64,000 bases of DNA from Gammaproteobacteria bacterium (lineage in GTDB: Bacteria > Pseudomonadota > Gammaproteobacteria > Natronospirales > JAIVGZ01), in contig JBBEAN010000008.1 in assembly GCA_040882865.1 (NCBI GenBank), positions 556,437 through 620,436 on the forward strand, read 5' to 3'. How positions within the stretch are numbered: the first letter of the stretch is position 1; each line of letters starts with the position of its first letter. The position numbers and the translations under genes are program-made. Below are positions 3,372-52,513 of this stretch, piece after piece. Below the pieces are notes generated by a model. The model was not told the origin of the DNA, did no database searches, and saw only the letters and a program-made list of their open reading frames with translations.

Positions 3372-4985
3372 ATGACTGCGTACCGCGCCTTCCTTGTCGC
3401 ACTCATTTTCGTCGGCCTGATCGTCGTCGGCGCGGTTTTCGTCACGCTGCAGGCGGCTGAGACAACCGCCGCCCGGACCGAAGCGGCTGGACGTCTGTTG
3501 TTGCTCGAGCGGGTGAAAGTGAGCCTGCTGCGCAGCGAAAGCACGCAACGCGCCTACCTGTTGACCGGAGACGGCGCATACCTGCAGTTGTCCGAGCGGA
3601 ATGCGGCCGACGTCGTCCAGCACCTCGATAGGCTGCGCGCCGGCGGCTATGCCGCCCACACACTGCCTGCGGACATCGCCGAATTGCATGCCGCGGCGCG
3701 CGGGCGCATCGATTCGCTGCGCGAGGTCATCGACACGAACGGTCGCGACGGGCCTGATAGGGCCCAGCTGCTCATCCGTGATCGCGCGTCGGCCGACATG
3801 GACCGCTACCTCACCGTGAGTGCGCGGATCGAGCAGAGCGAGACCGTTCACCTGCAATCGCTGCGGGACCATTCAACAGTCCTGGCGACGCGCTTGCTGT
3901 GGCTGCTCGGTCTTGGTGCCGTGCTGAATCTCGCGTTGCTCTGGCTCGTCTACCGTGTCATGCGCGGCGACATGCGCCTGAAGCAACAGCTGATCGACCG
4001 GATGGAGAAGAGCGGAGACGAAATCGTCCACCTGAACGAGATGAACAGCGCATTGCTGTCCTGCAGCGACCAGCAGGAGGCGAATCAAGTTGTGCGTCAC
4101 TACATCCGATTGCTCTTCCCCGGTACCGCTGGCGGCCTGTACTTGTACCGCGCATCGCGCAACCTGCTGGAACTGCAGGCCACGTGGGGTACGCCTGACG
4201 GCGCCGTCGCTGATTCGATACTGAGCGACGAATGCTGGTCGTTGCGGCGCGGTGCCACCCATCTCCACCGTGGCGACGACGACCTCGCATGCACGCATGT
4301 CGACCCGAGCGGCACGGGTTACTGTTGTGTACCGATGATGGCGCTCGGCGAGACGCTGGGCATGCTCCATACGCAGTGCGATTCCTCTGACACCGAGCGG
4401 GTGCGGTTGATTGAGACCGTCGCGACACAGGTAGCGAGCGCGATGGCGAATTTAAATCTACGCGCCGCGTTGCATGCGCAATCTATCAAGGATCCGTTGA
4501 CCGGCCTTTTCAACCGCCGCTACCTCGAGGAGACCGTCCAGCGCGAGACGCTCCGGGCGTTGCGCAACGACGGTTCGATGGGTGTGGTCATCCTGGACAT
4601 AGACCACTTCAAGACCTTCAACGACAGCCACGGGCACCAAGCCGGCGACTATGTGCTGCAAGTGGTCGGCGAAGCGCTGCGCAATGCGATCCGCGGCGAC
4701 GATATTGCGTGTCGCTACGGTGGCGAGGAGTTCACCTTGATTCTGCCGGGCGCCACGCTCGAGCAAGCGGTGCAGCGCGCGGAACAGGTGCGCATCGCAA
4801 TTTCACAACTGCCGTTACACGTCGGCGGGCGCACGCTCGACGCGATTACGATATCGCTCGGCGTCGCGTCGTTCCCGGCACATGGCAACGACTGGCCTCG
4901 TGTATTGCAGGCGGCCGACGCCGCTCTCTATCAGGCGAAACAAAAGGGCCGTAACTGCGTCGTCACCGCGGTACGCCCTGAATGA
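3372..4985 (+). CDS. diguanylate cyclase, CHASE3 sensor / GAF-like / GGDEF
   Basis: Active site RYGGEEF with an RxxD I-site (RGDD) 5 residues upstream. CHASE3-like periplasmic region (STQRAYLLTGDGAYLQ) lies between two TM helices. ATG 3372 (MTAYRAFLVALIF) is preferred because the GTG at 3267 sits only 2 nt from the divergent gene's start codon. Confidence 0.85.
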   Translation: MTAYRAFLVALIFVGLIVVGAVFVTLQAAETTAARTEAAGRLLLLERVKVSLLRSESTQRAYLLTGDGAYLQLSERNAADVVQHLDRLRAGGYAAHTLPADIAELHAAARGRIDSLREVIDTNGRDGPDRAQLLIRDRASADMDRYLTVSARIEQSETVHLQSLRDHSTVLATRLLWLLGLGAVLNLALLWLVYRVMRGDMRLKQQLIDRMEKSGDEIVHLNEMNSALLSCSDQQEANQVVRHYIRLLFPGTAGGLYLYRASRNLLELQATWGTPDGAVADSILSDECWSLRRGATHLHRGDDDLACTHVDPSGTGYCCVPMMALGETLGMLHTQCDSSDTERVRLIETVATQVASAMANLNLRAALHAQSIKDPLTGLFNRRYLEETVQRETLRALRNDGSMGVVILDIDHFKTFNDSHGHQAGDYVLQVVGEALRNAIRGDDIACRYGGEEFTLILPGATLEQAVQRAEQVRIAISQLPLHVGGRTLDAITISLGVASFPAHGNDWPRVLQAADAALYQAKQKGRNCVVTAVRPE

Positions 4986-5063: not shown

Positions 5064-5423
5064 ATGAACGAAGACATCACCCAAATCCGGCGCCGCGCGG
5101 TCATGAGCCGCGCGCTGCTTCGCACGACGAGCCGCCTCGGTCTGAGCCGCGAACGGCTCGCGTCCGCGACCGGCCTGCGTCTTGCCGAAATCGCCTCGCT
5201 GGAAAACGAAGCGGGCGAGCTCGACCCGGCCGACCCGCGCTGGAATGCGTTCGTCGAACTCGTCCGCTTATGCTGGATCCTGGACGTCGTGTCGGCGGGC
5301 GACGACGCCGCCATGCGCGACTGGATGCATTGCTACAATCGCGACCTCAACGCCGTTCCGGCCGACTTCATTGCAGGCGAACGCGGGCTCAGCGAGGCAA
5401 TCCGTTACCTCGAGGCCCACTAA
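5064..5423 (+). CDS. Xre-like HTH / DUF2384 (MbcA-ParS type) antitoxin-like protein, no toxin partner
   Basis: 119 aa. The C-terminal part (DDAAMRDWMHCYNRDLNAVPADFIAGERGLSEAIRYLE) resembles the DUF2384 toxin-binding domain of RES-toxin antitoxins. No RES-type ORF is adjacent. Confidence 0.55.
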   Translation: MNEDITQIRRRAVMSRALLRTTSRLGLSRERLASATGLRLAEIASLENEAGELDPADPRWNAFVELVRLCWILDVVSAGDDAAMRDWMHCYNRDLNAVPADFIAGERGLSEAIRYLEAH

Positions 5424-5438
5424 CCACTCGTTTCAGCT

Positions 5439-5777
5439 TTAGTGGCCTTCGTGATCCTTCCGGCCCTTACCCTTGCCTTTGCCTTTGTGCATCTTTTCCA
5501 TCTTCGCGATCTGGTCTTCATTGAGAAGCGCGCGAATCTCGGTGCGGACCTGCTCGTGCGACTTCTTGATTTGCTCACGCGCGTCTGCGGTCCGCTCGTG
5601 ATGCTGCTTCATAAGCGCTTCGACCTGGGCGCGCTGGCTGTCGGTGAGATCCAGCCGCTCGGCCATGCGGTCCATGTGCCGCTCGTGCCTGTCGCCGCCA
5701 TGCTCGCCGGGGTTCGCCCAGGCGCCGCTCGCCAGTGTGAGGCCCAGCGCCGCGGCCGTCAGTAGAGTCATTCTCAT
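5439..5777 (-). CDS. Spy/CpxP-family periplasmic protein (LTxxQ motif)
   Basis: Signal peptide MRMTLLTAAALGLTLASGAWA. LTDSQRAQVEALMKQHHE motif. His/Lys-rich tail. GGAG lies upstream of ATG 5777. Confidence 0.75.
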   Translation of the reverse strand: MRMTLLTAAALGLTLASGAWANPGEHGGDRHERHMDRMAERLDLTDSQRAQVEALMKQHHERTADAREQIKKSHEQVRTEIRALLNEDQIAKMEKMHKGKGKGKGRKDHEGH

Positions 5778-5850
5778 GATGCATCTCCGTAGTGGGACGT
5801 ATGGCAGTATGAACCGGATCCCCCCACAAAGTTCCGTTGCGAGCAATCGC

Positions 5851-6960
5851 CTACGACGTCGCCCGGCGGCGGGTGAACATCACCGGCACGAATCGCACGA
5901 AATAAACGAGGAAGCCGGCCACCCAGAGCGCCGCCGCCACAACCAGTGCGAGCCGCCCGGCATTGAACGGCAGCAATGGATAGATGAGTCGCGGTACCAC
6001 CGCGGTCGCAATCAGTACGAATGCAGTGACCATCCAGCCATCGGCGCGCAGGGGCCGGCCACTGTGGCCAAGCGCCACGCGCGTCATCATGCCGATTGCA
6101 AGGCTGCCGAGCGCACCCATCGTCAGCGCGTGCAGCGTCGCCGCGGGTGGGAATGGCGTCGCCCGTAACGCGAGTGCGATGACAATCCAGAGATAGCCGA
6201 CGTGGAGTATCCACAACAACGGAACGCCCAGCGTGCCCCAAGGCTTCCAGTACGTCATGCGGGCCGCGAGCAACAACGCCGCGGCGACCGCGACCCAACC
6301 CGGCCACGCAGCGGTCGGCGCGAGCCAACCGGCAATCACCGCGGCAATGACCGCCGCCACGGACACGTGTCCAAGCTGCGCATTGTCCTTGACGCCGAGT
6401 GTCGGCAATCCACGCCCGGTGAAAAACGGGATCACACGCGCACCGATGAAGACCAGGAGGATCATCACGACATCGATCGCCGCCCTCAAGAACGCGACCG
6501 ACGGCCAAAGGTGCACCGCGACGCCCGCGAGCGATAAGGCCGTGAGAATCGCGAGCACCGGGTAATTGCGACGATTCCGAGTCGCGAGGATTGGCACGGC
6601 GACCACAAGGGTCAGCGCCGGGAAGAAGGCTGCCGCAAGCACCTCAACGACGGGCATCGGCAGAACCGGCCAGACGAGGCCGATGCGCGGCACCAGCCAG
6701 AGGACGGCAAGGCCCGCGATGAGCCGCGGCCCGGCGACGAGCCGACCGGTCCAGTTGCCGACGGCCGTGAGCAAGAATCCGGCAATCAGCGCCGCCGCGA
6801 AGCCGAACACCATCTCGTGCCCGTGCCACACCAACGGCGACCAGCCGACCGCGCCCTGGCCGCTGCCGGTGAGGAACGCGACCCAAGCGATGACGTGGAA
6901 CACCGCGAAACCGGAAGCGGCGAGGAAGAACGGACGAAACCCATCGGAAAATAGCGGCAT
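5851..6960 (-). CDS. NnrS family membrane protein
   Basis: Starts MPLFSDGFRPFFLAASGFAVFHV, a typical NnrS N-terminus, followed by about 12 TM helices. The 528-aa track ORF is an upstream over-extension that overlaps the next + strand gene. Confidence 0.8.
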   Translation of the reverse strand: MPLFSDGFRPFFLAASGFAVFHVIAWVAFLTGSGQGAVGWSPLVWHGHEMVFGFAAALIAGFLLTAVGNWTGRLVAGPRLIAGLAVLWLVPRIGLVWPVLPMPVVEVLAAAFFPALTLVVAVPILATRNRRNYPVLAILTALSLAGVAVHLWPSVAFLRAAIDVVMILLVFIGARVIPFFTGRGLPTLGVKDNAQLGHVSVAAVIAAVIAGWLAPTAAWPGWVAVAAALLLAARMTYWKPWGTLGVPLLWILHVGYLWIVIALALRATPFPPAATLHALTMGALGSLAIGMMTRVALGHSGRPLRADGWMVTAFVLIATAVVPRLIYPLLPFNAGRLALVVAAALWVAGFLVYFVRFVPVMFTRRRATS

Positions 6961-8971: not shown

Positions 8972-10412
8972 CGCTGCGGAACCTCATCTCGAAGCCGGCG
9001 CCGCCGAGGTCCTCGCTGCGGTACACGATGAGTTCGGCGCGGTGGTCGGCCGCGACGCCGAGGACGATCGCGAGCCCGAGTCCGCTGCCCTCGCCGGGCG
9101 CCTTGGTGGTGAAGAACGGGTCGAACATGCGCTCGCGCACCGCATCGTCGATGCCGGGGCCCGAATCCTCGACGAACAGGGCCGGGTCATCGTGGTGCAA
9201 GCGCCAGCCGACCCGGACCGTACCGCCCGGTGCTGCCTGCGCGGCGTTACGCAGCAAGTGGCCGAGCGCCTCGCGCAAACGGCCAAAGTCGGCACGCGGC
9301 ACGTCCGCATCGCCATCCGGAAGTCGCACGTCAACGAGTGTTCCTTCGGCGCGGCAGCGCTCGCGGGTATCCGTCGCTGCGAGCGACACGAGTTGCCTTA
9401 GCGACACATCGGCGAGCGCCGCGTGGCTCGCGCGGCCGAAACCGAGCAGTTGCCGGATCACCGACGACATCCGGTCCACCGCATTGCGGATGCCGATCGA
9501 AATATTCCCGAACTGAGTACCGGGCTCGGCGATGCGCGCGAGCTTCTGTGCGTGCGCGTCGACGACTGCGAGCGGCGTGCCGAGCTCGTGCGCAACGCCC
9601 GACGCGAGCCGGCCGACCATCGCGTACTTCGCGCTCTCGCGCAGCCGTGCCTCGAGTTTTTCTTGATGTTCGCGCTTCGCCGCGAGGTCCGCATCCTTCT
9701 CGATCATCGCCTCGAGCATGCCGTTGAAGCGGTGAGCGAGCTGGCGCAGTTCGCCCGGACCGCGTTCTTCCGCGCGCACCGAGCTATCACCCCCAGCGAC
9801 CGCATCCATCGTGTGCTTAAGCGACTGTAGCGGCCGGCCGATCGCGAGGTAGTGGCCGACATAGACGAGGATTCCGAACAAGACCGCGCCCATCAGCAGC
9901 AGCCAGACACCGTTGCGCCGTAACTGCGCGAGGTAGGCGCGCATCGCGCCGGCGTCGCGCGTGACTTCGAGCAGGCCGATCACCTGGCCGCTCGTTGCGT
10001 ACAAAGGCACGAAGTACGAGTACATCTCGCGCCCGCCGACTGACGACGCGTACTCGCCGCCGGCTGCTTGGGTCCCGGGTCCGGCAACCGCGCGCCGTGG
10101 CTGCCGCACGGCCGGGTCCTGGTCCGCGGCCGCGACAAGTTCGCCGTGCTCGTCGTAGACGTACACGCCGTAGACGCGCCCCGTGCCGTACGCCGACCAC
10201 AGCGCGAGATCGAGTTCGCGGTCGCTGCGGCTCTGAAGCGACCGGCTCATCGGCGCCTGCAGCGTCCGGGCAATCAGCTCAATGTCCTCCTTCATGCGGT
10301 CCTCGATCCGCTCTTCGAGCGCCTGCACGGCTAAAAGCCCCACCGCGAACGCGACGAGGAGCGGCAGCGACACGAGGACGATCAGGACCAGGCGGATACC
10401 GATGTTGTGCAT
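8964..10412 (-). CDS. sensor histidine kinase (periplasmic sensor, HAMP, HisKA, HATPase)
   Basis: H-box SGVAHELGTPLAV and G-boxes DSGPGI / GEGSGLGLAIV. Two TM helices flank a periplasmic domain of about 150 aa. Overlaps the regulator gene by 8 nt. ATG 10412 (MHNIGIRLVLIVLV) is preferred over the longer track ORF. Confidence 0.85.
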   Translation of the reverse strand: MHNIGIRLVLIVLVSLPLLVAFAVGLLAVQALEERIEDRMKEDIELIARTLQAPMSRSLQSRSDRELDLALWSAYGTGRVYGVYVYDEHGELVAAADQDPAVRQPRRAVAGPGTQAAGGEYASSVGGREMYSYFVPLYATSGQVIGLLEVTRDAGAMRAYLAQLRRNGVWLLLMGAVLFGILVYVGHYLAIGRPLQSLKHTMDAVAGGDSSVRAEERGPGELRQLAHRFNGMLEAMIEKDADLAAKREHQEKLEARLRESAKYAMVGRLASGVAHELGTPLAVVDAHAQKLARIAEPGTQFGNISIGIRNAVDRMSSVIRQLLGFGRASHAALADVSLRQLVSLAATDTRERCRAEGTLVDVRLPDGDADVPRADFGRLREALGHLLRNAAQAAPGGTVRVGWRLHHDDPALFVEDSGPGIDDAVRERMFDPFFTTKAPGEGSGLGLAIVLGVAADHRAELIVYRSEDLGGAGFEMRFRSDA

Positions 10413-10605
10413 GGGGACCAGCGTAGCGTGCGCGTGCGCATGTGCCGATTTGGCAAAAACCCTATATGGAGCCGGAAAAAGCGGGGTTTTTCCCCCGCTG
10501 GATTCAGTCGTGTGCCAGATTGTCCCAACCCGCGGAAAGGTCAACGCTTGACGCACCTACCGCGAGAGGCGCCCCACTCAAGGCTTTTCGCCATTCGAAG
10601 TGTTC

Positions 10606-10621
10606 TGGCATGGGCCTTGCA
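10606..10621 (+). promoter_or_regulatory. sigma-54 (-24/-12) promoter
   Basis: TGGCATgggccTTGCA matches TGGCAC-N5-TTGCW, with GG at 10607-08 and GC at 10619-20. It lies 45 nt upstream of ATG 10666 and is divergent from the sigma-54 regulator operon. Confidence 0.65.
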
Positions 10622-10665
10622 TCTATGTCAGCACACTCAAACTTTACCTTGAAGGAGGTATACCA

Positions 10666-11556
10666 ATGCATCTGACAAAAGCACTGGCAGCACTGAGCGC
10701 CGGGTCGCTTCTGTTGATCGGGCACTCGACACTCGCCTACGCACAGGATGATCCGTATACGGACGACACACGCGACGAGCAGTCGACCGAAACCACCACG
10801 CAGGACGACACTTGGTCGAGCGACACCGAGACCACAGCCGATGCCGACGTGGACATGCAGGATGATTCCGATGTCGAGTCCGACTCGACGATGGACACGT
10901 ATGCCCAGAACGAGGATGACGAGTACAGCGCCGAAGTGGATGTCGACTCGAGTTCCGAGTCGGATTCCGACGTGTACGCGCGTACCGAAGATGACGAGTT
11001 CCGTGCCGACGTAGACGTCGATGCGGAAAGCGACACCTATGCTGCGACCCGGGACGACGATGAGTTCCGTGCCGACGTAGACGTCGATGCGGATGCCGAC
11101 AGCGACACCAGCTCGTCGACCTACGCGCAGACCGAAGACGATGGCTTTGACGCCAGCGCCGACGTGAACGCGGATGTCGACAGCAGCGCTTCGCCGGACC
11201 TGCAGGAGCAGGTCGCCCAGATTGACGTCGAAGTGGACGTCGACGCGGCGAAGATCGAGGAGCTCGCGCAGATCCACGTGGAAATGCAGAAAGAGACCCG
11301 CGATCTTGCCGACCAGATGTCGGGCGCCGGTTCGACTGCAGACGCGCAGGAACTTCAGGCGCAGATGGTCGACCGCCAGGTCGAGGTGATTGAACGCCAC
11401 GGTTGGACCCGCGATGAGTACAACGCGGTCGTCGACACCGTGAACGAGAATCCCGACCTCCGCGCGCAGTTCATCGAAAATGTGGTGAACAGCGATACCG
11501 CGGTCGCGCAGACTGAGTCGGAAGACCCGGCTGCCGAGGAAGACACCGACTGGTAA
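10666..11556 (+). CDS. secreted, highly acidic repeat protein with C-terminal DUF4168-like domain
   Basis: GGAGG RBS and signal peptide MHLTKALAALSAGSLLLIGHSTLAYA. About 190 aa are dominated by D/E/T/S with repeated Y-A-x-T-E-D-D-E-F-R-A-D-V-D-V-D-A units. The C-terminus (ELAQIHVEMQKE...WTRDEYNAVVDTVNENPDLRAQF) resembles DUF4168. Confidence 0.7.
   Translation: MHLTKALAALSAGSLLLIGHSTLAYAQDDPYTDDTRDEQSTETTTQDDTWSSDTETTADADVDMQDDSDVESDSTMDTYAQNEDDEYSAEVDVDSSSESDSDVYARTEDDEFRADVDVDAESDTYAATRDDDEFRADVDVDADADSDTSSSTYAQTEDDGFDASADVNADVDSSASPDLQEQVAQIDVEVDVDAAKIEELAQIHVEMQKETRDLADQMSGAGSTADAQELQAQMVDRQVEVIERHGWTRDEYNAVVDTVNENPDLRAQFIENVVNSDTAVAQTESEDPAAEEDTDW
10996..11093 (+). repeat. intragenic tandem duplication (66-nt period) in the acidic protein gene
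   Basis: The 32-nt string GAGTTCCGTGCCGACGTAGACGTCGATGCGGA occurs identically at 10996-11027 and 11062-11093. Confidence 0.85.
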
Positions 11557-46905: not shown

Positions 46906-47546
46906 TGGGACCGGTCTCGCGCACACGTCTGTTTGAACGCCTCAAAGCGCTCGACCCCGCCCCGACGACCGAGCTGGTGTACCGCACGCCGTTCGAACTT
47001 CTGGTCGCCGTCATCCTGTCTGCGCAAGCGACGGACATCGGCGTCAACAAGGCGACCGTAAAACTTTTCGCAGTCGCGAACACGCCGGACGCGATTCTCG
47101 CGCTCGGCGAGGCGCGGCTGAAGCGCTTCGTGAAGACCATCGGCCTGTTCAATACCAAGGCGAAGAACATCATGAAGACTTGTCGCATCCTCGTCGATGA
47201 GCACGGCGGCGAAGTGCCGCGCAACCGCGCGGCGCTCGAGCGGCTGCCAGGCGTCGGTCGCAAGACCGCTAACGTAATCCTGAATACGGCATTCGGCGAG
47301 CCCACCATCGCGGTCGACACACATATCTTCCGCGTGTCGAACCGCACCGGTCTTGCGCCCGGGAAAAACCCGCTCGAGGTGGAGCGCGCGCTGATGCAGC
47401 GGGTTCCGCCGCGCTATCGCAAGGACGCGCACCACTGGCTCATCCTGCATGGGCGCTACACCTGTAAGGCCCGCAAGCCGCTGTGTGGCGACTGCGTCAT
47501 CGCGGACCTGTGCGAATGGCCGGGGCGGGTGGTCGGTGTTCGGTAA
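46905..47546 (+). CDS. nth: endonuclease III
   Basis: HhH-GPD (LPGVGRKTANVIL) and the 4Fe-4S motif CKARKPLCGDCVIADLC. ATG 46905 overlaps the rnfE stop. Confidence 0.9.
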   Translation: MGPVSRTRLFERLKALDPAPTTELVYRTPFELLVAVILSAQATDIGVNKATVKLFAVANTPDAILALGEARLKRFVKTIGLFNTKAKNIMKTCRILVDEHGGEVPRNRAALERLPGVGRKTANVILNTAFGEPTIAVDTHIFRVSNRTGLAPGKNPLEVERALMQRVPPRYRKDAHHWLILHGRYTCKARKPLCGDCVIADLCEWPGRVVGVR

Positions 47547-47964
47547 CAACCGGAACGCAATGCGCGCACGGTACCTTGCGATCTGGCGCAAGCTTCAGGC
47601 GCGCGCGCCGCTCGAGCCGCTGGAAGCGGTCATCGCGTCGGTCATCGAGGACCACCCCGAATACCACGCGCTGTTCGAAAAGGGTGAAGTCGCCCTCGCT
47701 GAAGAATGGTCGCCCGAGGGTGGCCAGTCGAATCCATTCCTCCACCTCGGCCTGCACATCGCCGTCCGCGAACAGGTCGCGGCCGACCGACCGCTCGGCG
47801 TACGTGGCGTTTTCGAGTCGCTCGCGCGCGCGGCCAGCGACCCTCTCGAAGCCGAACACCGCATGATCGAATGCCTCGCCGCGACGCTGTGGGAAGCCGG
47901 CCGCAGCGGCGTCCCGCCGGATGAGGCCGCGTATCTTGAGCGCCTGCGCAGGCTGAAATGCTGA
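47536..47964 (+). CDS. DUF1841 family protein
   Basis: (M)FGNNRNAMRARYLAIWRKLQ...EDHPEYHALFE is DUF1841-like. GTG 47536 overlaps the nth stop. Alternative start ATG 47560. Confidence 0.6.
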   Translation: MFGNNRNAMRARYLAIWRKLQARAPLEPLEAVIASVIEDHPEYHALFEKGEVALAEEWSPEGGQSNPFLHLGLHIAVREQVAADRPLGVRGVFESLARAASDPLEAEHRMIECLAATLWEAGRSGVPPDEAAYLERLRRLKC

Positions 47965-47998
47965 AACGGTGAAATTTAATGCCGCGGTGCCGGTCTTC
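47953..47998 (+). promoter_or_regulatory. candidate ECF-type promoter and triple TGAAA repeat upstream of the RiPP operon
   Basis: CTGAAATG-CTGAAACG-GTGAAATT (47953-47976). TGAAAT (47970-75) is followed after 17 nt by GTCTTC (47993-98). GGAGG RBS at 48014-18. Confidence 0.3.
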
Positions 47999-48025
47999 TA
48001 AGTACCCCCAACTGGAGGAAACACC

Positions 48026-48361
48026 ATGACGAAGTCCCGTAACTACACGCTGGCGCTCGCCGTCGGCACCGCCCTGGCCGCCGCGCCCGCAGCGGCCGCC
48101 GCCAACCCGTTCGGCCTCTCCGACCTCGGCGCCGGTTACATGCTCGGCGCGGCAGCAGCGGGCGACCCGGCGCCGGCAGCGAAAGACGCCGAAGGCAAAT
48201 GCGGCGAGGACAAGGCCAAGAAGGACGCCGAGGGCAAGTGCGGTGAAGGCAAGTGCGGTGAGGACAAGGACAAGGCCGAGGCGAAGGATGGCGAGGGCAA
48301 GTGCGGTGAGGAGAAAGACAAGGCCAAGACGAAAGATGGCGAGGGTAAGTGCGGGGCCTGA
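48026..48361 (+). CDS. secreted Cys-repeat RiPP precursor (five EGKCG motifs; HvfA/oxazolin-like metallophore precursor)
   Basis: Signal peptide MTKSRNYTLALAVGTALAAAPAAAAA. After it comes NPFGLSDLGAGYML, then a K/E/D-rich tail with EGKCG x5 (Cys codons at 48200, 48239, 48254, 48302, 48350), ending EGKCGA-stop. Directly followed by DUF692 and DUF2063 genes. Confidence 0.8.
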   Translation: MTKSRNYTLALAVGTALAAAPAAAAANPFGLSDLGAGYMLGAAAAGDPAPAAKDAEGKCGEDKAKKDAEGKCGEGKCGEDKDKAEAKDGEGKCGEEKDKAKTKDGEGKCGA

Positions 48362-49158
48362 ACGGCACCGGCCTTGGCCTGCGCCGGCCGTTGATCGAGC
48401 CCTTGCTCGAACAGCGGCCGGCGCAACTTTCGTTTCTGGAAGTCGCACCCGAAAACTGGCTCGGTATCGGCGGCCGACTGGGCCGGCAGCTGCGCGCGCT
48501 GTCAGAGCGTTACCCGCTCGCGAGCCACGGCCTCTCGCTGTCGCTCGGGGGTCCCGGCCCGCTCGATGAGGCCTTCGTGCTCGAGCTCAAACGGTTTTTC
48601 GACGAATACGGCATCACGACGTGCAGCGAGCACCTGTCCTACTGCAGCGACGATGGCCAGCTTTATGACCTCCTTCCGATTCCCTTCACCGAGGAAGCCG
48701 TCCACTGGGTCGCCGCGCGCATTCGCCGCGTCGAAGCCCTGCTAGAACGCCCGCTCGCCATCGAGAACGTGTCGTACTACGCAGCGCCTGGCGCCGAGAT
48801 GCGCGAGATCGAATTCGTGAACGCGGTCCTCGAGGAAGCGGATTGCCGACTGCTGCTCGACGTGAACAACGTGCTCGTCAATTCGGTCAACCACGCGTAC
48901 GACCCGGTCGAGTTCATCCACGCTTTGCCCGCGGACCGCGTCGAGTACTTGCACATGGCCGGGCACACCATCGAGGCCGAAGACCTGCGCATCGATACAC
49001 ATGGCAGCGACGTGCCGGACGAGGTGTGGCGATTGCTCGCCGTCGCGTACGCACACTGCGGGCCACTGCCGACGCTGCTCGAGCGCGACTTCAACATCCC
49101 TCCGCTCGACACGCTGCTCGCAGAAGTCGACCGCATCGTCGAAGCACAGCGCGCATGA
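48349..49158 (+). CDS. DUF692 / MNIO family peptide maturase (MbnB-HvfB-BufB like)
   Basis: Motif series SHGLSLSLGG, SEHLSYC, AIENVSYY, LLLDVNN, YLHMAGH, IDTHG (TIM-barrel metal-ligand pattern of DUF692). GTG 48349 overlaps the precursor by 13 nt. Confidence 0.85.
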   Translation: MRGLNGTGLGLRRPLIEPLLEQRPAQLSFLEVAPENWLGIGGRLGRQLRALSERYPLASHGLSLSLGGPGPLDEAFVLELKRFFDEYGITTCSEHLSYCSDDGQLYDLLPIPFTEEAVHWVAARIRRVEALLERPLAIENVSYYAAPGAEMREIEFVNAVLEEADCRLLLDVNNVLVNSVNHAYDPVEFIHALPADRVEYLHMAGHTIEAEDLRIDTHGSDVPDEVWRLLAVAYAHCGPLPTLLERDFNIPPLDTLLAEVDRIVEAQRA

Positions 49159-49871
49159 GTCTGCGCGCCGACCAACTCGAATTCGCCGCGCACTTGCGCG
49201 ACCCCGACGGACACCCGGCCCCGCCGGGCCTCGAGCCACGCCGCGTCGCCGTGTACCGCGGCCTGCTGTTCAAGAACGTGCTCAGCTTCATGCAGAACGG
49301 TTTTCCGGTCATCCGCAAGACGCTCGGCGACGACGCGTTCGCGACGCTCGTGCGCACATGGTTCGCGCAACACCGCGCGACGACGCCGATTTTTCCGCGC
49401 ATGCCGGGCGAGCTCATCGCATGGCTGGCCGATACACCGCGCGCCGCCGCGGGTGCGCCGCCGTGGCTCACAGAGCTTGCGCACTACGAATGGATCGAAC
49501 TGGAACTCCAACTGGATCCGGCGGAAATCGACGTCGACGGCGTGGACGCCGACGGCGATTTGCGCATGGGGGTGCCGGTGTTATCGCCGCTCGCGCGCGT
49601 CCTCGCGTACGATTGGCCGGTCCACCGGATCGGACCGGATTACCGTCCCGAGACGCCGGAACCGACCACCCTGCTCGTGTACCGAGACCGCAGTGACGGC
49701 GTGCGCTTCATGGAGACCAACGCGATGACGCACGCCCTGTTGGCGCTGTTGCGGGACAACGAGACCGCGACCGGTGAGACGCTGCTGCGCGGGCTCGCGG
49801 TCCGTGATGCGGCGCTGTCTCTGCTCGAGTCGCTGCGTGAGCGCGACATCATCGCCGGGGCACGGTCATGA
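49155..49871 (+). CDS. DUF2063 family partner protein (HvfC/BufC-like)
   Basis: N-terminus MSLRADQLEFAAHLRDP...RVAVYRGLLFKNV... is typical of DUF2063. ATGA overlaps on both sides. Confidence 0.8.
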   Translation: MSLRADQLEFAAHLRDPDGHPAPPGLEPRRVAVYRGLLFKNVLSFMQNGFPVIRKTLGDDAFATLVRTWFAQHRATTPIFPRMPGELIAWLADTPRAAAGAPPWLTELAHYEWIELELQLDPAEIDVDGVDADGDLRMGVPVLSPLARVLAYDWPVHRIGPDYRPETPEPTTLLVYRDRSDGVRFMETNAMTHALLALLRDNETATGETLLRGLAVRDAALSLLESLRERDIIAGARS

Positions 49872-50350
49872 CCATTCTCGTCGTGGTTCGCGATTGTCTG
49901 GAAAAGGTCGGCACGTGGTTGCCACAGCTTGCGCTCCGGCTGCTGCTCGCCTGGGAGTACGGCGAAGCGGGCGTGACCAAGCTGCGCGGTGAGAACTGGT
50001 TCGGGCACGTGCAGGACAAGTTCCTGTTCCCGTTCAACTACGTGCCGCCGGCGATCAGTTGGACGCTCGCGACCTGGACGGAAATCATCGGCGCGCTCCT
50101 GCTCGTCATCGGTCTCGGAACGCGCTTCGTCAGCGTTGCGTTCATCGGGCTCACGGTCGTCGCCATCGGCGCCGTCCATTGGCCCGACCAGTGGTCAACG
50201 ATCGGTGACCTGCTGAGCGGGTACACGATTTCCGACCAGGGTCATGGCAATTTCAAGTTGCCGGTCATATTCATCGTCATGCTCCTGCCCTTATTGTTCT
50301 GGGGAGCAGGCAAGGCGAGCGTCGACCATTGGATCCGGACGCGTGACTGA
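49868..50350 (+). CDS. DoxX family membrane protein (BufD/GigT-like)
   Basis: 160 aa, 4 TM helices. Coupled to the DUF2063 gene by an ATGA overlap. Confidence 0.8.
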   Translation: MTILVVVRDCLEKVGTWLPQLALRLLLAWEYGEAGVTKLRGENWFGHVQDKFLFPFNYVPPAISWTLATWTEIIGALLLVIGLGTRFVSVAFIGLTVVAIGAVHWPDQWSTIGDLLSGYTISDQGHGNFKLPVIFIVMLLPLLFWGAGKASVDHWIRTRD

Positions 50351-50855
50351 CAAGCGTCGCAAGTTCGGGACCCTCGTCGCAGCGCTCCTGCCGCAGCTGT
50401 ACCGGTATGCCTACTGGTTGAATCAGGACGGGCAGATCGCCGAGGACGTGGTGCAGGACGCATTGTTACGCGCGTGGCGCGCAATCGATTCCCTGAAAGA
50501 CGAGACGCGGGCGAAGGCGTGGTTGCTCACCATCGTCCGGCGGGAGCACGCGCGTCGGTTCGAGGGCGTGCAGCCGGTCTTCGTCGACCTCGGCGCGCTC
50601 GAACTCGCGGACACGGCCTATCCGGCGGAGGCCGCTGCCGACGCCGCTGACTTGCGGCGGCTCATTGCTGAACTCGAGCCCGCCTACCGCGAACCGCTGG
50701 TGTTACAGGTCGTCGTCGGTCTGTCCTGCGAGGAGATCGCCGAACTGCTGGACTTGAACAAAGCGACGGTGCTGACGCGCTTGTTCCGCGCCCGGCGCCT
50801 TTTGACCCAACGCGTGGCTGCGCCCGTCGTCACGGACGCAGGAGGAATCCTATGA
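50343..50855 (+). CDS. ECF (group IV) RNA polymerase sigma factor
   Basis: Region 2 (DVVQDALLRAWRAIDSL, WLLTIVRRE) and region 4 HTH (LSCEEIAELLDLNKATVLTRLFRARRLL). GTG 50343 overlaps the DoxX stop by 8 nt. Confidence 0.85.
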   Translation: MTDKRRKFGTLVAALLPQLYRYAYWLNQDGQIAEDVVQDALLRAWRAIDSLKDETRAKAWLLTIVRREHARRFEGVQPVFVDLGALELADTAYPAEAAADAADLRRLIAELEPAYREPLVLQVVVGLSCEEIAELLDLNKATVLTRLFRARRLLTQRVAAPVVTDAGGIL

Positions 50856-51547
50856 ACTGTCTCGAGTATCGGCGCACGCTGTTGGAGCGGCCCACCGACC
50901 CCGGTAGCGGCGCGCGCGAACACCAGCTCGCGTGTCGCGCCTGCGCCGACTGGACAACCCAGCAGCAACGGTTCGAACAGCGGCTCGCGTACGCCCTGTC
51001 CGTTCCGGTTCCCGAGGGCGTCGCCGAGCGCGTGATGCTGCACGCCGCCTGGCGCTCACCCCGTCCGCATTGGCAAACCATCGCCGCGACGGTCGCCGCC
51101 GTCACGCTCGGCGCACTACTTGCTATCCAGCTCGCCGACCAGCCGGTGCTCGCACAATCGGTGCTCACGCACGTGTACGACGAACCAGACCTGCTAATAC
51201 CGGGCAGCGAGCCCGTCGATCCCGCACGACTGAAGGCGGTGCTGGAGCGCGTTGGCGGCACACTCGACGGCACAATCGGTTCGGTGCTGCACGCGGGACT
51301 TTGCCCGGTCGGCGGCAAACTCGCCGCGCACCTCGTCGTCGCTGGTGAACACGGACCGATTGCGGTGCTCGTGATGCCGGAATACGGCGTCGCGACAAAC
51401 ACAGCCGTCGGTGACGACAAGCTGCACGGCGCAATCGTGCCGGTTGGCCGTGGCAGCGTCGCGGTCATCGGTTTCCGTGGAGAATCGCTTGATGTGCTCG
51501 CAGAGCGCGTGCGCACTCAACTAAGTATCGCTGACCATGGCGCTTGA
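50852..51547 (+). CDS. anti-sigma factor (zinc-binding HxxxCxxC, single TM; DUF3379-like)
   Basis: MNCLEYRRTLL...EHQLACRAC (H-x3-C-x2-C), TM helix WQTIAATVAAVTLGALLAIQL, and a periplasmic C-domain. ATGA overlap with the sigma gene. Confidence 0.8.
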   Translation: MNCLEYRRTLLERPTDPGSGAREHQLACRACADWTTQQQRFEQRLAYALSVPVPEGVAERVMLHAAWRSPRPHWQTIAATVAAVTLGALLAIQLADQPVLAQSVLTHVYDEPDLLIPGSEPVDPARLKAVLERVGGTLDGTIGSVLHAGLCPVGGKLAAHLVVAGEHGPIAVLVMPEYGVATNTAVGDDKLHGAIVPVGRGSVAVIGFRGESLDVLAERVRTQLSIADHGA

Positions 51548-51932
51548 CCCACGACTCGCGGCGGACACGCTGTCCGTTGCGCAACTCCCGCTTTGCAGTG
51601 TGCGGCTGATGAATGACGCGCGTTACCCGTGGATCATCCTGGTTCCGCGCGTCGAGGATGCCGTCGAGCTGCTCGACCTCTCGGATGCCGACCAACAGCG
51701 CCTATACGACGAAATCAGGCAGTGCGCGCGCGTGCTACAGGAACACACAAGCGCCGACAAACTGAACATCGCTGCCCTCGGTAACGTCGTGCGCCAGCTG
51801 CACGTCCACGTCGTCGCGCGCTTTCACGACGACGACGCGTGGCCGAAGCCGGTCTGGGGCGTGCACCCGGCGGTCCCCTATGAGGACGACGCCGCGGCAA
51901 CGCTGATTCAGGCGCTGGCGACGCGCCTATGA
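51537..51932 (+). CDS. HIT family hydrolase
   Basis: Histidine triad QLHVHVVARF. 131 aa. Overlaps the anti-sigma gene by 11 nt. Confidence 0.8.
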   Translation: MALDPRLAADTLSVAQLPLCSVRLMNDARYPWIILVPRVEDAVELLDLSDADQQRLYDEIRQCARVLQEHTSADKLNIAALGNVVRQLHVHVVARFHDDDAWPKPVWGVHPAVPYEDDAAATLIQALATRL

Positions 51933-52013
51933 ATCGCGGCGCGAAGGCGCCGGCCTATTCGCGGCGCAAAGGCGCCGTTTATTCGCGGCGCAAAGGCGCC
52001 GCTCCTACAGTTG
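51931..52013 (+). repeat. three tandem REP units (orientation A), 24-26-nt period
   Basis: GAATCGCGGCGCGAAGGCGCCGGCCT / ATTCGCGGCGCAAAGGCGCCGTTT / ATTCGCGGCGCAAAGGCGCCGCTCCTACAGTTG. Only the last unit keeps the CTCCTACAG tail. The array begins inside the HIT stop codon (TGA 51930-32). Confidence 0.9.
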
Positions 52014-52021
52014 CGGCGCGA

Positions 52022-52513
52022 TCATTTCAACGCGGTCTGCCAGACCTTCAATTTGTCGGCGTACCGCGTCGTGTTCGCGGGGCTCGACGACGGCAGCACG
52101 TGCACGTCGAGTCCGAACGACGCAACGTGCGCGACGTGTTTCGCCGCGGTCTTGCCGTTGAAGCAAGCGGTCACGAGCTTCGGGCAGCGCGCGATGAGCC
52201 GCGCAAAATCGTTGAACTCCGCGTCGCGGATGTTGCCGTCGAGGCTGCCCTCACGCCGACATCGACCGATCACGTCCCACAAGCCGATGCCGGCGCGCTT
52301 CAACGCGGCGAGCCGATGTCGATACGGCATGCCATGCAGTTCGACGCCGACTGAATCACCGACGAGTCGCCAGAACTGATTCTGCGGGTATGCGTAATAC
52401 TGCTGCGCCGCGAGCGACGCCGCGCCGGGGAAGCTCCCCAGCACCAATACGCGCGTGTCACGCGTGACCACCGGTAGGAGACCCACCAACACCTTGCTCG
52501 TTTTCGAACGCAC
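52022..52513 (-). CDS. DNA-deoxyinosine (hypoxanthine) glycosylase, UDG family 6-like
   Basis: RVLVLGSFPGAASLAAQQYYAYPQNQFW and the C-terminal LPSSSPAN are typical. GTG 52513 gives 163 aa. The 214-aa track ORF would overlap the divergent gene. Confidence 0.6.
   Translation of the reverse strand: MRSKTSKVLVGLLPVVTRDTRVLVLGSFPGAASLAAQQYYAYPQNQFWRLVGDSVGVELHGMPYRHRLAALKRAGIGLWDVIGRCRREGSLDGNIRDAEFNDFARLIARCPKLVTACFNGKTAAKHVAHVASFGLDVHVLPSSSPANTTRYADKLKVWQTALK

Follow-up and report, generated by a model that had tools for sequence, protein, structure and literature searches.

Secreted peptides with EGKCG repeats belong to a biosynthetic family that is already known from several papers published since 2024, where it is referred to as oxazolin (PMC11252979), Buf_EGKCG/oxazolin (PMC12452194) or EGKCG captophorins (PMC13097082), and NCBIfam models name all four of its core proteins. 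Here, we describe a member of this family in a stretch of 64,000 nucleotides (hereafter the window; GenBank assembly GCA_040882865.1, contig JBBEAN010000008.1, positions 556,437 to 620,436) of an uncultured gammaproteobacterium, in which the genes hvfABCX are followed by genes for an extracytoplasmic function (ECF) sigma factor and a DUF3379 anti-sigma factor. The closest described systems are hvf of nontypeable Haemophilus influenzae, fontiphorin of Fontimonas thermophila, and gonophorin. They comprise the same four core proteins, a precursor with a Sec signal and EGKCG motifs, and the same pair of a multinuclear non-heme iron oxidase (MNIO) and a DUF2063 partner with a RiPP recognition element (RRE; RiPP, peptide made by the ribosome and modified after translation), with conversion of the cysteines to 5-thiooxazole copper ligands being expected in either case. 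The gene order in the window is A-B-C-X, whereas in H. influenzae the DoxX gene (NTHI1440) precedes hvfA (NTHI1441), and the window precursor contains five mostly isolated EGKCG units, in contrast to three AEGKCGEGKCG doublets in H. influenzae. Moreover, the H. influenzae sigma factor RpoE2 and the 67-amino acid cytoplasmic protein HrsE are encoded beside msrAB, apart from the DoxX/hvf cluster (PMC7907618), unlike the sigma factor and the 231-amino acid transmembrane DUF3379 anti-sigma factor of the window, whose genes are fused to the operon.

The bufferin 1 clusters (bufABCD, gig) of Caulobacter vibrioides, with SigF/NrsF, and of Cupriavidus metallidurans, with RpoQ/RsqA, likewise combine an MNIO with DUF2063 and DoxX proteins and, as predicted for the window, pair a secreted thiooxazole copper chelator derived from cysteines with an adjacent ECF sigma/anti-sigma pair. 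However, their precursor is of the DUF2282 type instead of the EGKCG type, and the anti-sigma factor reported for them is NrsF (PF06532), a multi-pass membrane protein, whereas the window encodes a single-pass DUF3379 protein. To our knowledge, the switch that turns on copper-peptide operons is known for few organisms, namely Caulobacter (SigF/NrsF) and Haemophilus (RpoE2/HrsE); RpoQ reportedly could not be shown to control gig in Cupriavidus.

We consider it likely that the locus represents an hvfABCX cluster for a secreted EGKCG-repeat peptide metallophore to which an ECF sigma/DUF3379 anti-sigma pair has been appended in cis. A first-pass annotation had proposed a translationally coupled operon of seven genes for an MNIO-matured, Cys-repeat RiPP, and its seven plus-strand open reading frames (ORFs) and six overlaps are present exactly as it had placed them. 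The promoter and the genes are as follows.

47970..48000, + strand: predicted ECF-type promoter (motif match; -35 TGAAAT, -10 CCGGTCT)
48014..48019, + strand: Shine-Dalgarno sequence GGAGGA of hvfA, read from the sequence
48026..48361, + strand: hvfA, 111-amino acid precursor (NCBIfam NF050137, 60.2 vs. cut-off 19.5)
48349..49158, + strand: hvfB, MNIO (DUF692) maturase (NCBIfam HvfB equivalog, Pfam PF05114)
49155..49871, + strand: hvfC, DUF2063/RRE partner (NCBIfam HvfC, Pfam DUF2063 and NGO1945_C)
49868..50350, + strand: hvfX, DoxX-family membrane protein (NCBIfam HvfX, Pfam DoxX)
50343..50855, + strand: ECF sigma factor of the PRK12517 subfamily (Pfam Sigma70_r2 and Sigma70_r4_2; PRK12517)
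50852..51547, + strand: DUF3379 transmembrane anti-sigma factor (Pfam DUF3379, PF11859, 122 bits)
51537..51932, + strand: HIT-family protein (Pfam HIT, 60.4 bits), a resident gene of the genomic backbone

The first four genes are an hvfABCX cluster of the HvfA/oxazolin type and an ordinary member of this family. The precursor HvfA passed the HvfA-family domain model, as listed above, and did not reach the strict H. influenzae HvfA equivalog NF050188 (41.8 vs. cut-off 95). It consists of a Sec-type signal peptide, as judged by eye, a conserved NPFGLSDLGAGYM segment and the five EGKCG motifs reported by the first-pass annotation, which start at residues 56, 69, 74, 90 and 106, contain all cysteines of the peptide and include one adjacent EGKCGEGKCG pair (residues 69-78). 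An alignment with 42 family precursors, which possess 2-13 cysteines and are all encoded next to HvfB genes, revealed the signal peptide, the NPFxxxxLxxGYM segment and the EGKCG repeats as common elements. The exact precursor sequence is absent from the public record.

The maturase is of the HvfB type, because it exceeds the HvfB cut-off (NF003818, 409.7 vs. 360) and remains below those of the BufB equivalog (NF050167, 269.7 vs. 310) and of MbnB (TIGR04159, 31.7 vs. 325); a methanobactin- or bufferin-type MNIO is ruled out by these curated cut-offs. With Pfam MbnB_TglH_ChrH (PF05114) it scored 339.6 bits, and the six DUF692 motifs quoted in the first-pass annotation are located at residues 59, 93, 137, 168, 200 and 215. 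The closest solved structure is 3bww, a DUF692 protein of Histophilus somni (243 bits), in which the residues aligned with H60, H95, E139, D171, H202/H205, D216/H218 and E247 are identical. Judging by published work on MbnB and HvfB, these positions are presumably the iron ligands. In addition, HvfC scored 252.6 with NF050145 (cut-off 142) and matches PF09836 (DUF2063) as well as PF22106, and HvfX scored 145.9 with NF050144 (cut-off 80) and 66.6 bits with PF07681 (DoxX). The profile searches thus placed the DUF692, DUF2063 and DoxX proteins and all four core genes above curated cut-offs, and the RiPP locus that had been claimed is of the oxazolin type according to NCBIfam, in agreement with the Pfam matches. 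Based on these family memberships and the precursor pattern, the cluster is a normal member of the oxazolin/captophorin family; as one of thousands of such clusters, the core itself is nothing new. The prediction that standard pipelines would give these genes generic labels is true of the deposited record of the metagenome-assembled genome (MAG), where they are called 'DUF692 domain-containing', 'putative DNA-binding domain-containing' and 'DoxX family', but not of the current NCBIfam models, which name the core proteins.

All junctions from hvfA to the HIT gene are overlaps, in this order of 13 nucleotides (GTGCGGGGCCTGA), 4 (ATGA), 4 (ATGA), 8 (GTGACTGA), 4 (ATGA) and 11 nucleotides (ATGGCGCTTGA). 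Six start/stop overlaps in a row between co-directional genes are operon architecture and not chance. GTG serves as the start codon of hvfB and of the sigma factor gene, which is backed by profile alignments that begin at residue 7 and residue 1, respectively. The gene calls of an 81%-identical relative from farmland soil (L087), whose layout and flanks are identical, retain the 13-nucleotide hvfA/hvfB overlap and place the sigma start further downstream (154 amino acids). A terminator scan predicted no intrinsic terminator inside the block, and a sigma-70 promoter scan of positions 47400-52400 returned zero sites.

The sigma factor consists of regions 2 and 4 only and scored 204.5 with PRK12517 (cut-off 197). 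The gene located directly downstream, with a 4-nucleotide overlap, encodes the H-x3-C-x2-C motif (HQLACRAC at residue 24) and the single hydrophobic segment (residues 77-95) by which the first-pass annotation had recognised an anti-sigma factor with one transmembrane helix. Among 88 DUF3379 sequences, C3, H24, C28 and C31 are invariant in all 88, and H107, E111, C151 and H160 of the periplasmic part are 85-95% conserved. An AlphaFold2 model (mean predicted local distance difference test score, pLDDT, 89) comprises an N-terminal helical domain, a long transmembrane helix and a periplasmic alpha/beta domain. Moreover, the DUF3379 family profile matches the anti-sigma domain of Bacillus subtilis RsiW (PDB 5wuq; E = 0.0026) over a region spanning the HxxxCxxC motif. 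RsiW likewise combines an N-terminal H-x3-C-x2-C domain with one transmembrane helix and an extracytoplasmic domain, and its gene directly follows that of its ECF sigma factor; however, the extracytoplasmic domain of the window protein is unrelated to that of RsiW and has no significant solved homologue. Gene 6 is predicted to encode a zinc-type (ZAS) anti-sigma factor, which would bind the sigma factor encoded before it. DUF3379 is its sole Pfam family, with no match to NrsF (PF06532) at E <= 0.01. In the literature searched, DUF3379 is essentially absent, including both MNIO survey papers and their supplements, in which NrsF is the sole anti-sigma partner named. PF11859 and PF01230 do not occur in the supplement of PMC13097082, and HIT is unmentioned in the supplements of both surveys.

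For comparison, two sets of loci were assembled. On the regulator side, one genome per species was scanned, which yielded 246 confirmed DUF3379 loci, 80 of which were fetched; on the enzyme side, metagenomes provided the 80 HvfB relatives closest to the window protein (59-68% identity). The motif TGTAA(G/T)-N15-CCGGTCT(T/A)AT, which is located upstream of sigma factor or BufA1 genes, emerged de novo when dyads were counted in the upstream regions of the fetched DUF3379 loci outside the window. In the window, the corresponding elements are the -35 sequence TGAAAT (47970-47975) and the -10 sequence CCGGTCT (47990-47996), 26-56 nucleotides upstream of the hvfA ATG; the scored site 47970-48000 consists of the pattern 47970-47996 and the flanking -10 bases. 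This is the sole occurrence of the pattern in the 64 kb (1 vs. 0.00 expected), and it is found in the 61-nucleotide gap preceding hvfA, where a comparison with L087 shows that two blocks are conserved and that the spacer between them varies. The site scores 22.9 bits, as compared with 19.4 bits for the best site in 20 simulated windows of 64 kb. Across 2.0 Mb of DUF3379 loci, 58 of the 70 matrix matches of at least 15 bits precede sigma, anti-sigma, BufA1 or MNIO genes. In L001 and L089, a match is located approximately 35 nucleotides before the sigma gene. Likewise, nine hvf loci unlinked to the pair show a match of at least 15 bits upstream of hvfA, as opposed to one on the control strand, and two relatives without the sigma pair in cis (L170 and L171) contain no match. 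The ECF207 consensus (GAATAA / GGTCT) reported in PMC13492112 resembles the derived motif and can be taken as a lead only. As the sole match lies just upstream of hvfA, a self-activating ECF circuit is predicted, in which the operon would most likely be transcribed by its own sigma factor under positive autoregulation.

Several further motif sites were observed. The strongest matches of the DUF3379 type (28.8-31.1 bits; L067 at ~7296 (-), L080 at ~6261 (-) and L083 at 5219-5875 (-)) diverge from the sigma gene and precede genes for secreted fusions of N-terminal NPCAAKAK-type Cys-repeats with a SoxA/TsdA cytochrome c domain, which could be another Cys-repeat class under the same regulator. The motif (24-26 bits) is also present at genes for DUF1223, a secreted CxxC protein, and for a cupin, approximately 2-3 kb from the sigma/DUF3379 pair (L063 at 10106-10894 (+), L066 at ~10956 (+) and 4439-4918 (+)), which suggests a small regulon beyond bufferin genes. 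Finally, a second conserved two-block motif related to the first, TGTAACATTT-N11-TGTCATAAT, was found ~95-140 nucleotides upstream of hvfB in about 11 metagenomic hvf loci (L128, L136, L139, L147, L151, L152, L155, L156, L160, L166 and L169) and probably serves as promoter for another ECF sigma factor that is encoded in trans.

In 73 of the 80 DUF3379 loci a sigma homologue is encoded directly upstream, and several of the other seven are truncated contigs. MNIO, DUF2063, DoxX or precursor genes are present within 8 kb in 28 of the 80, and nearly all of these 28 have precursors of the BufA1/DUF2282 type. Six of them (L053, L055, L056, L063, L064 and L066, from Rhodocyclaceae, Thiobacillus and Undibacterium arcticum) display the gene order of the window, i.e. 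precursor, MNIO, (DUF2063), DoxX, sigma factor and DUF3379, with HvfC not being detected in L055. They share with the window the sigma/DUF3379 family and the promoter motif upstream of the precursor, and differ from it in their BufA1/DUF2282 precursor and in an anti-sigma factor of 32-34% identity (tblastn); no description of these six loci was found in the literature searched. Further bufferin-linked loci show a divergent arrangement, and several contain precursor, DoxX, sigma factor and DUF3379 genes only. Among the 80 HvfB relatives of the enzyme side, by contrast, no sigma factor, DUF3379 or HIT gene is present nearby in any case, and the fusion is therefore lineage-specific; with an EGKCG cluster it was seen only in the window, in L087 and in a 60% relative (L088). 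The first-pass annotation had regarded a downstream, coupled sigma pair as unusual, which is correct with respect to the EGKCG-type relatives but not to the BufA1 clusters. Taken together, we conclude that ECF control of hvf and bufferin clusters is common and that the lineage of the window fused the regulator to its target.

With regard to the DoxX gene, we observed that DoxX, sigma factor and DUF3379 behave as a unit in L088, where the gap between hvfC and doxX contains a promoter match of its own (1096-1127), as well as in L005/L081, L033, L060, L068 and L006. Several of these units follow a precursor gene without MNIO or DUF2063 nearby, a hint that DoxX goes with the regulator or the precursor, and not with the modifying enzymes. 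Two further loci, L028 and L017, are both located on chromosome CP070733.1, where one DUF3379 gene lies beside a divergent BufA1-MNIO-DUF2063 cluster with no space for a sigma gene, and a full sigma/DUF3379 pair is present elsewhere.

The block is flanked by the following two features.

47536..47964, + strand: DUF1841 gene (Pfam DUF1841, 168 bits), a backbone neighbour outside the system
51933..52000, no strand assigned: GC-rich hairpin unit (CGCGGCGC-RAAG-GCGCCG) in three copies, located between HIT and UDG, which are convergent

The DUF1841 gene has a probable GTG start and an 11-nucleotide overlap with the nth stop, and its own stop codon is the left edge of the hvf block. The hairpin array was not flagged by the simple terminator scan, and its recognition therefore depends entirely on the folding energy (RNA minimum free energy -54.9 kcal/mol, z = -2.9); the transcript probably ends at this array. 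The tandem hairpins look like a REP-like (repetitive extragenic palindromic) element or a bidirectional terminator. An eighth plus-strand ORF, located at 51929-52354 and joined to the HIT stop by an ATGA overlap, was omitted from the first-pass gene list; it was rejected as spurious, since it matched no family and runs antisense to the confirmed UDG gene. The GC content of the block (65.8%) is similar to that of its flanks (66.7% and 64.5%) and thus gives no indication of a recent acquisition from a foreign source. Directly upstream of hvfA, a DUF1841 gene was also observed in about 19 of the 80 metagenomic EGKCG-type loci (L101, L108, L109, L117, L122, L124-L126, L130, L131, L133, L135, L140, L141, L145, L148-L150 and L158) and in the window, L087 and L171, always after nth (endonuclease III); the nth-DUF1841 pair is present in L087, L170 and L171. 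The main text of the MNIO survey PMC12452194 does not contain DUF1841. The adjacency may reflect conserved rnf-nth-DUF1841 synteny or a functional link.

We propose the following course of events. In the resting state, the DUF3379 protein would, with its zinc-type N-terminal domain, keep the sigma factor at the membrane, and basal expression would probably stem from read-through from nth-DUF1841. An envelope or thiol-reactive signal, with copper or an oxidant as candidates, would free the sigma factor, which would then transcribe the entire block from the promoter at 47970-48000; as the block includes the sigma factor's own gene, the circuit would have positive feedback. HvfA would be synthesized with its Sec signal peptide, and HvfC would bind its NPF...GYM segment and hand the peptide to the iron enzyme HvfB. 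The cysteine modification of the EGKCG family, for which the first-pass annotation had named oxazolone-thioamide or thiooxazole ligands, has meanwhile been reassigned from oxazolone-thioamide to 5-thiooxazole (PMC13097082; bioRxiv 10.64898/2026.07.17.739211), and the chemistry and copper binding of homologues have been described in these two studies and in PMC11252979. By analogy with HvfBC and FonBC, HvfB would oxidise the five EGKCG cysteines, each to 5-thiooxazole (-4 Da per cysteine, absorbance near 305 nm), and the modified peptide would be exported and bind Cu(I) in the periplasm. As the anti-sigma factor combines an invariant cytoplasmic Cys/His site with the conserved periplasmic His/Glu/Cys/His set, sensing could proceed either via the periplasmic domain or via the zinc site.

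Several observations weigh against this proposal. A Foldseek search with the DUF3379 model yielded no significant solved relative and at best a weak RseB-like match, and the N-terminus of the window protein is below the threshold of Pfam zf-HC2, which was seen weakly in one DUF3379 homologue (E = 0.013). The predicted promoter deviates from the motif in that its spacer is 1 nucleotide short of the majority and its -35 element reads TGAAAT, not TGTAAK; its score of 22.9 bits (window-composition background; 18.8 bits with a uniform background) ranks at the lower end of the 19.5-33.7 bits covered by the training sites. Furthermore, the motif was built in this analysis from the same kind of loci, and the promoter and the transcription start are in silico predictions for an uncultured MAG. 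DoxX is dispensable for modification and function in Caulobacter (PMC11626156). Finally, the nearest relatives of the sigma/DUF3379 pair outside the window lineage (52-55% identity) have no adjoining hvf genes, and the pair may therefore have other or additional targets; they adjoin hemB/ALAD with DUF3034 and globin genes. In the 52%-identical sister lineage (L001, 7684-8945, and L002), we observed the pair followed by overlapping genes for DUF3034 and a bacterial globin.

Among the alternative explanations, one concerns the signal. The cytoplasmic zinc-thiolate site might make the circuit respond to thiol-reactive compounds or to stress by oxidants or chlorine, instead of to periplasmic copper, with the peptide serving redox protection, which we regard as a serious possibility, albeit less probable than not. 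The invariance of C3, H24, C28 and C31 and the homology of their domain to ZAS-type RsiW are in line with it, as are the other predicted regulon members of the thiol/redox type, namely DUF1223 and the Cys-repeat cytochrome c. However, many ZAS domains are not redox-sensitive, and a purely cytoplasmic sensor would have no need of the large periplasmic domain, in which His, Glu, Cys and His residues are conserved. In H. influenzae, the homologous hvf operon is induced by hypochlorite (HOCl) via RpoE2 and a cytoplasmic ZAS anti-sigma factor (PMC7907618), a paper that gives no promoter consensus for comparison, and copper as the inducing signal was thus an assumption of the first-pass annotation. 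On the other hand, Cu(I) is bound by those family members that have been characterised, and bufferin operons respond to copper by induction (PMC11626156) and confer protection against it (PMC11626156, PMC11252979).

Less probable, and in our view unlikely, is that the sigma/DUF3379 pair is a mere neighbour controlling other genes, with the hvf genes being expressed under another regulator or through transcription that continues from nth-DUF1841. This would be in agreement with the surroundings of its nearest relatives and with its absence in cis from all 80 closest HvfB relatives. Moreover, no terminator is present between DUF1841 and hvfA, and in a Xanthomonadaceae MAG (L171) hvfABC begins 21 nucleotides after DUF1841 without an ECF motif. 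However, the only match to the family promoter motif in the 64 kb sits directly before hvfA, the same motif precedes bufferin precursors at other DUF3379 loci, the 8- and 4-nucleotide overlaps link the pair to hvfX, and the layout is kept in both L087 and L088.

The first-pass annotation had included the HIT protein in the operon, and it could be a functional seventh component, e.g. for a nucleotide-dependent step in maturation or signalling. We consider this very unlikely, even though its 11-nucleotide overlap with the anti-sigma gene is real, no terminator is predicted before it, and the arrangement is kept in L087; in L171, which encodes DUF1841, hvfA, hvfB, hvfC and HIT without DoxX or the sigma pair, the HIT gene directly follows hvfC with a 4-nucleotide overlap. 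However, a MAG with a 79%-identical HIT protein (L170) has the order Rnf, Nth, DUF1841, HIT, UDG, DNA_binding_1, SDR, GNAT and Lpd, i.e. the backbone of the window without the six genes of the hvf block, with DUF1841 and HIT 4 nucleotides apart. According to a DNA alignment with L170, the edges of the block coincide exactly with the stop of DUF1841 (47964) and the start of HIT (51537), and the six-gene block consequently spans 47965-51536. In L088, the sigma/DUF3379 pair is directly followed by UDG, with no HIT gene. Furthermore, no HIT gene was found in the 80 DUF3379 loci or the 80 HvfB loci, and its homologues (4749 at E <= 1e-10) occur in unrelated contexts; the solved relatives in the PDB are structural-genomics proteins of unknown function. 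The characterised hvf, buf and fon systems need no HIT protein (PMC11252979, PMC11626156, PMC13097082). As HIT is present without hvf in L170 and missing in L088 and 160 other loci, it stands outside the system, and its role as a functional component was rejected; it is resident at a site that is occupied by hvf modules, and is probably co-transcribed as a passenger.

That the 111-amino acid protein is an unmodified, Cys-rich periplasmic metal-binding protein and the MNIO has a different substrate is hardly credible, although it misses the H. influenzae equivalog, its repeats are mostly single units and FonBC modified a two-repeat but not a one-repeat peptide in vitro (PMC13097082), given that it passed the HvfA-family domain model, its gene overlaps hvfB by 13 nucleotides, its motifs are common to 42 precursors that are all encoded beside HvfB genes, and it contains one adjacent EGKCGEGKCG pair.

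The new part of the locus is thus its regulatory variant, the sigma/DUF3379 pair, which recurs at Buf1 clusters and is seldom found at EGKCG clusters, a real but modest novelty. In addition, our analysis removes the HIT gene as a false lead and flags the recurrent adjacency of DUF1841 and hvf. Beyond SigF/NrsF and RpoE2/HrsE, the locus points to a third class of regulators, in which an ECF sigma factor is paired with DUF3379. We tentatively suggest, as a plausible idea that falls somewhat short of an even chance, that DUF3379 proteins and PRK12517-type ECF sigma factors are unrecognised, widespread regulators dedicated to secreted Cys-rich peptide systems, which would sense the envelope via the periplasmic His/Glu/Cys/His set, possibly by binding copper, and act at TGTAAK-N15-CCGGTCT. 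If this is true, the systems under such dedicated regulators would comprise Buf1 bufferins, EGKCG oxazolins, the NPC-repeat cytochrome c fusion and DUF1223, and the window would be a case in which sensor, sigma factor and EGKCG biosynthesis are fused in one self-activating operon. The promoter motif and the candidate sensor residues make DUF3379, a domain of unknown function, directly testable, and provide a handle for predicting which organisms induce such peptides, and when.

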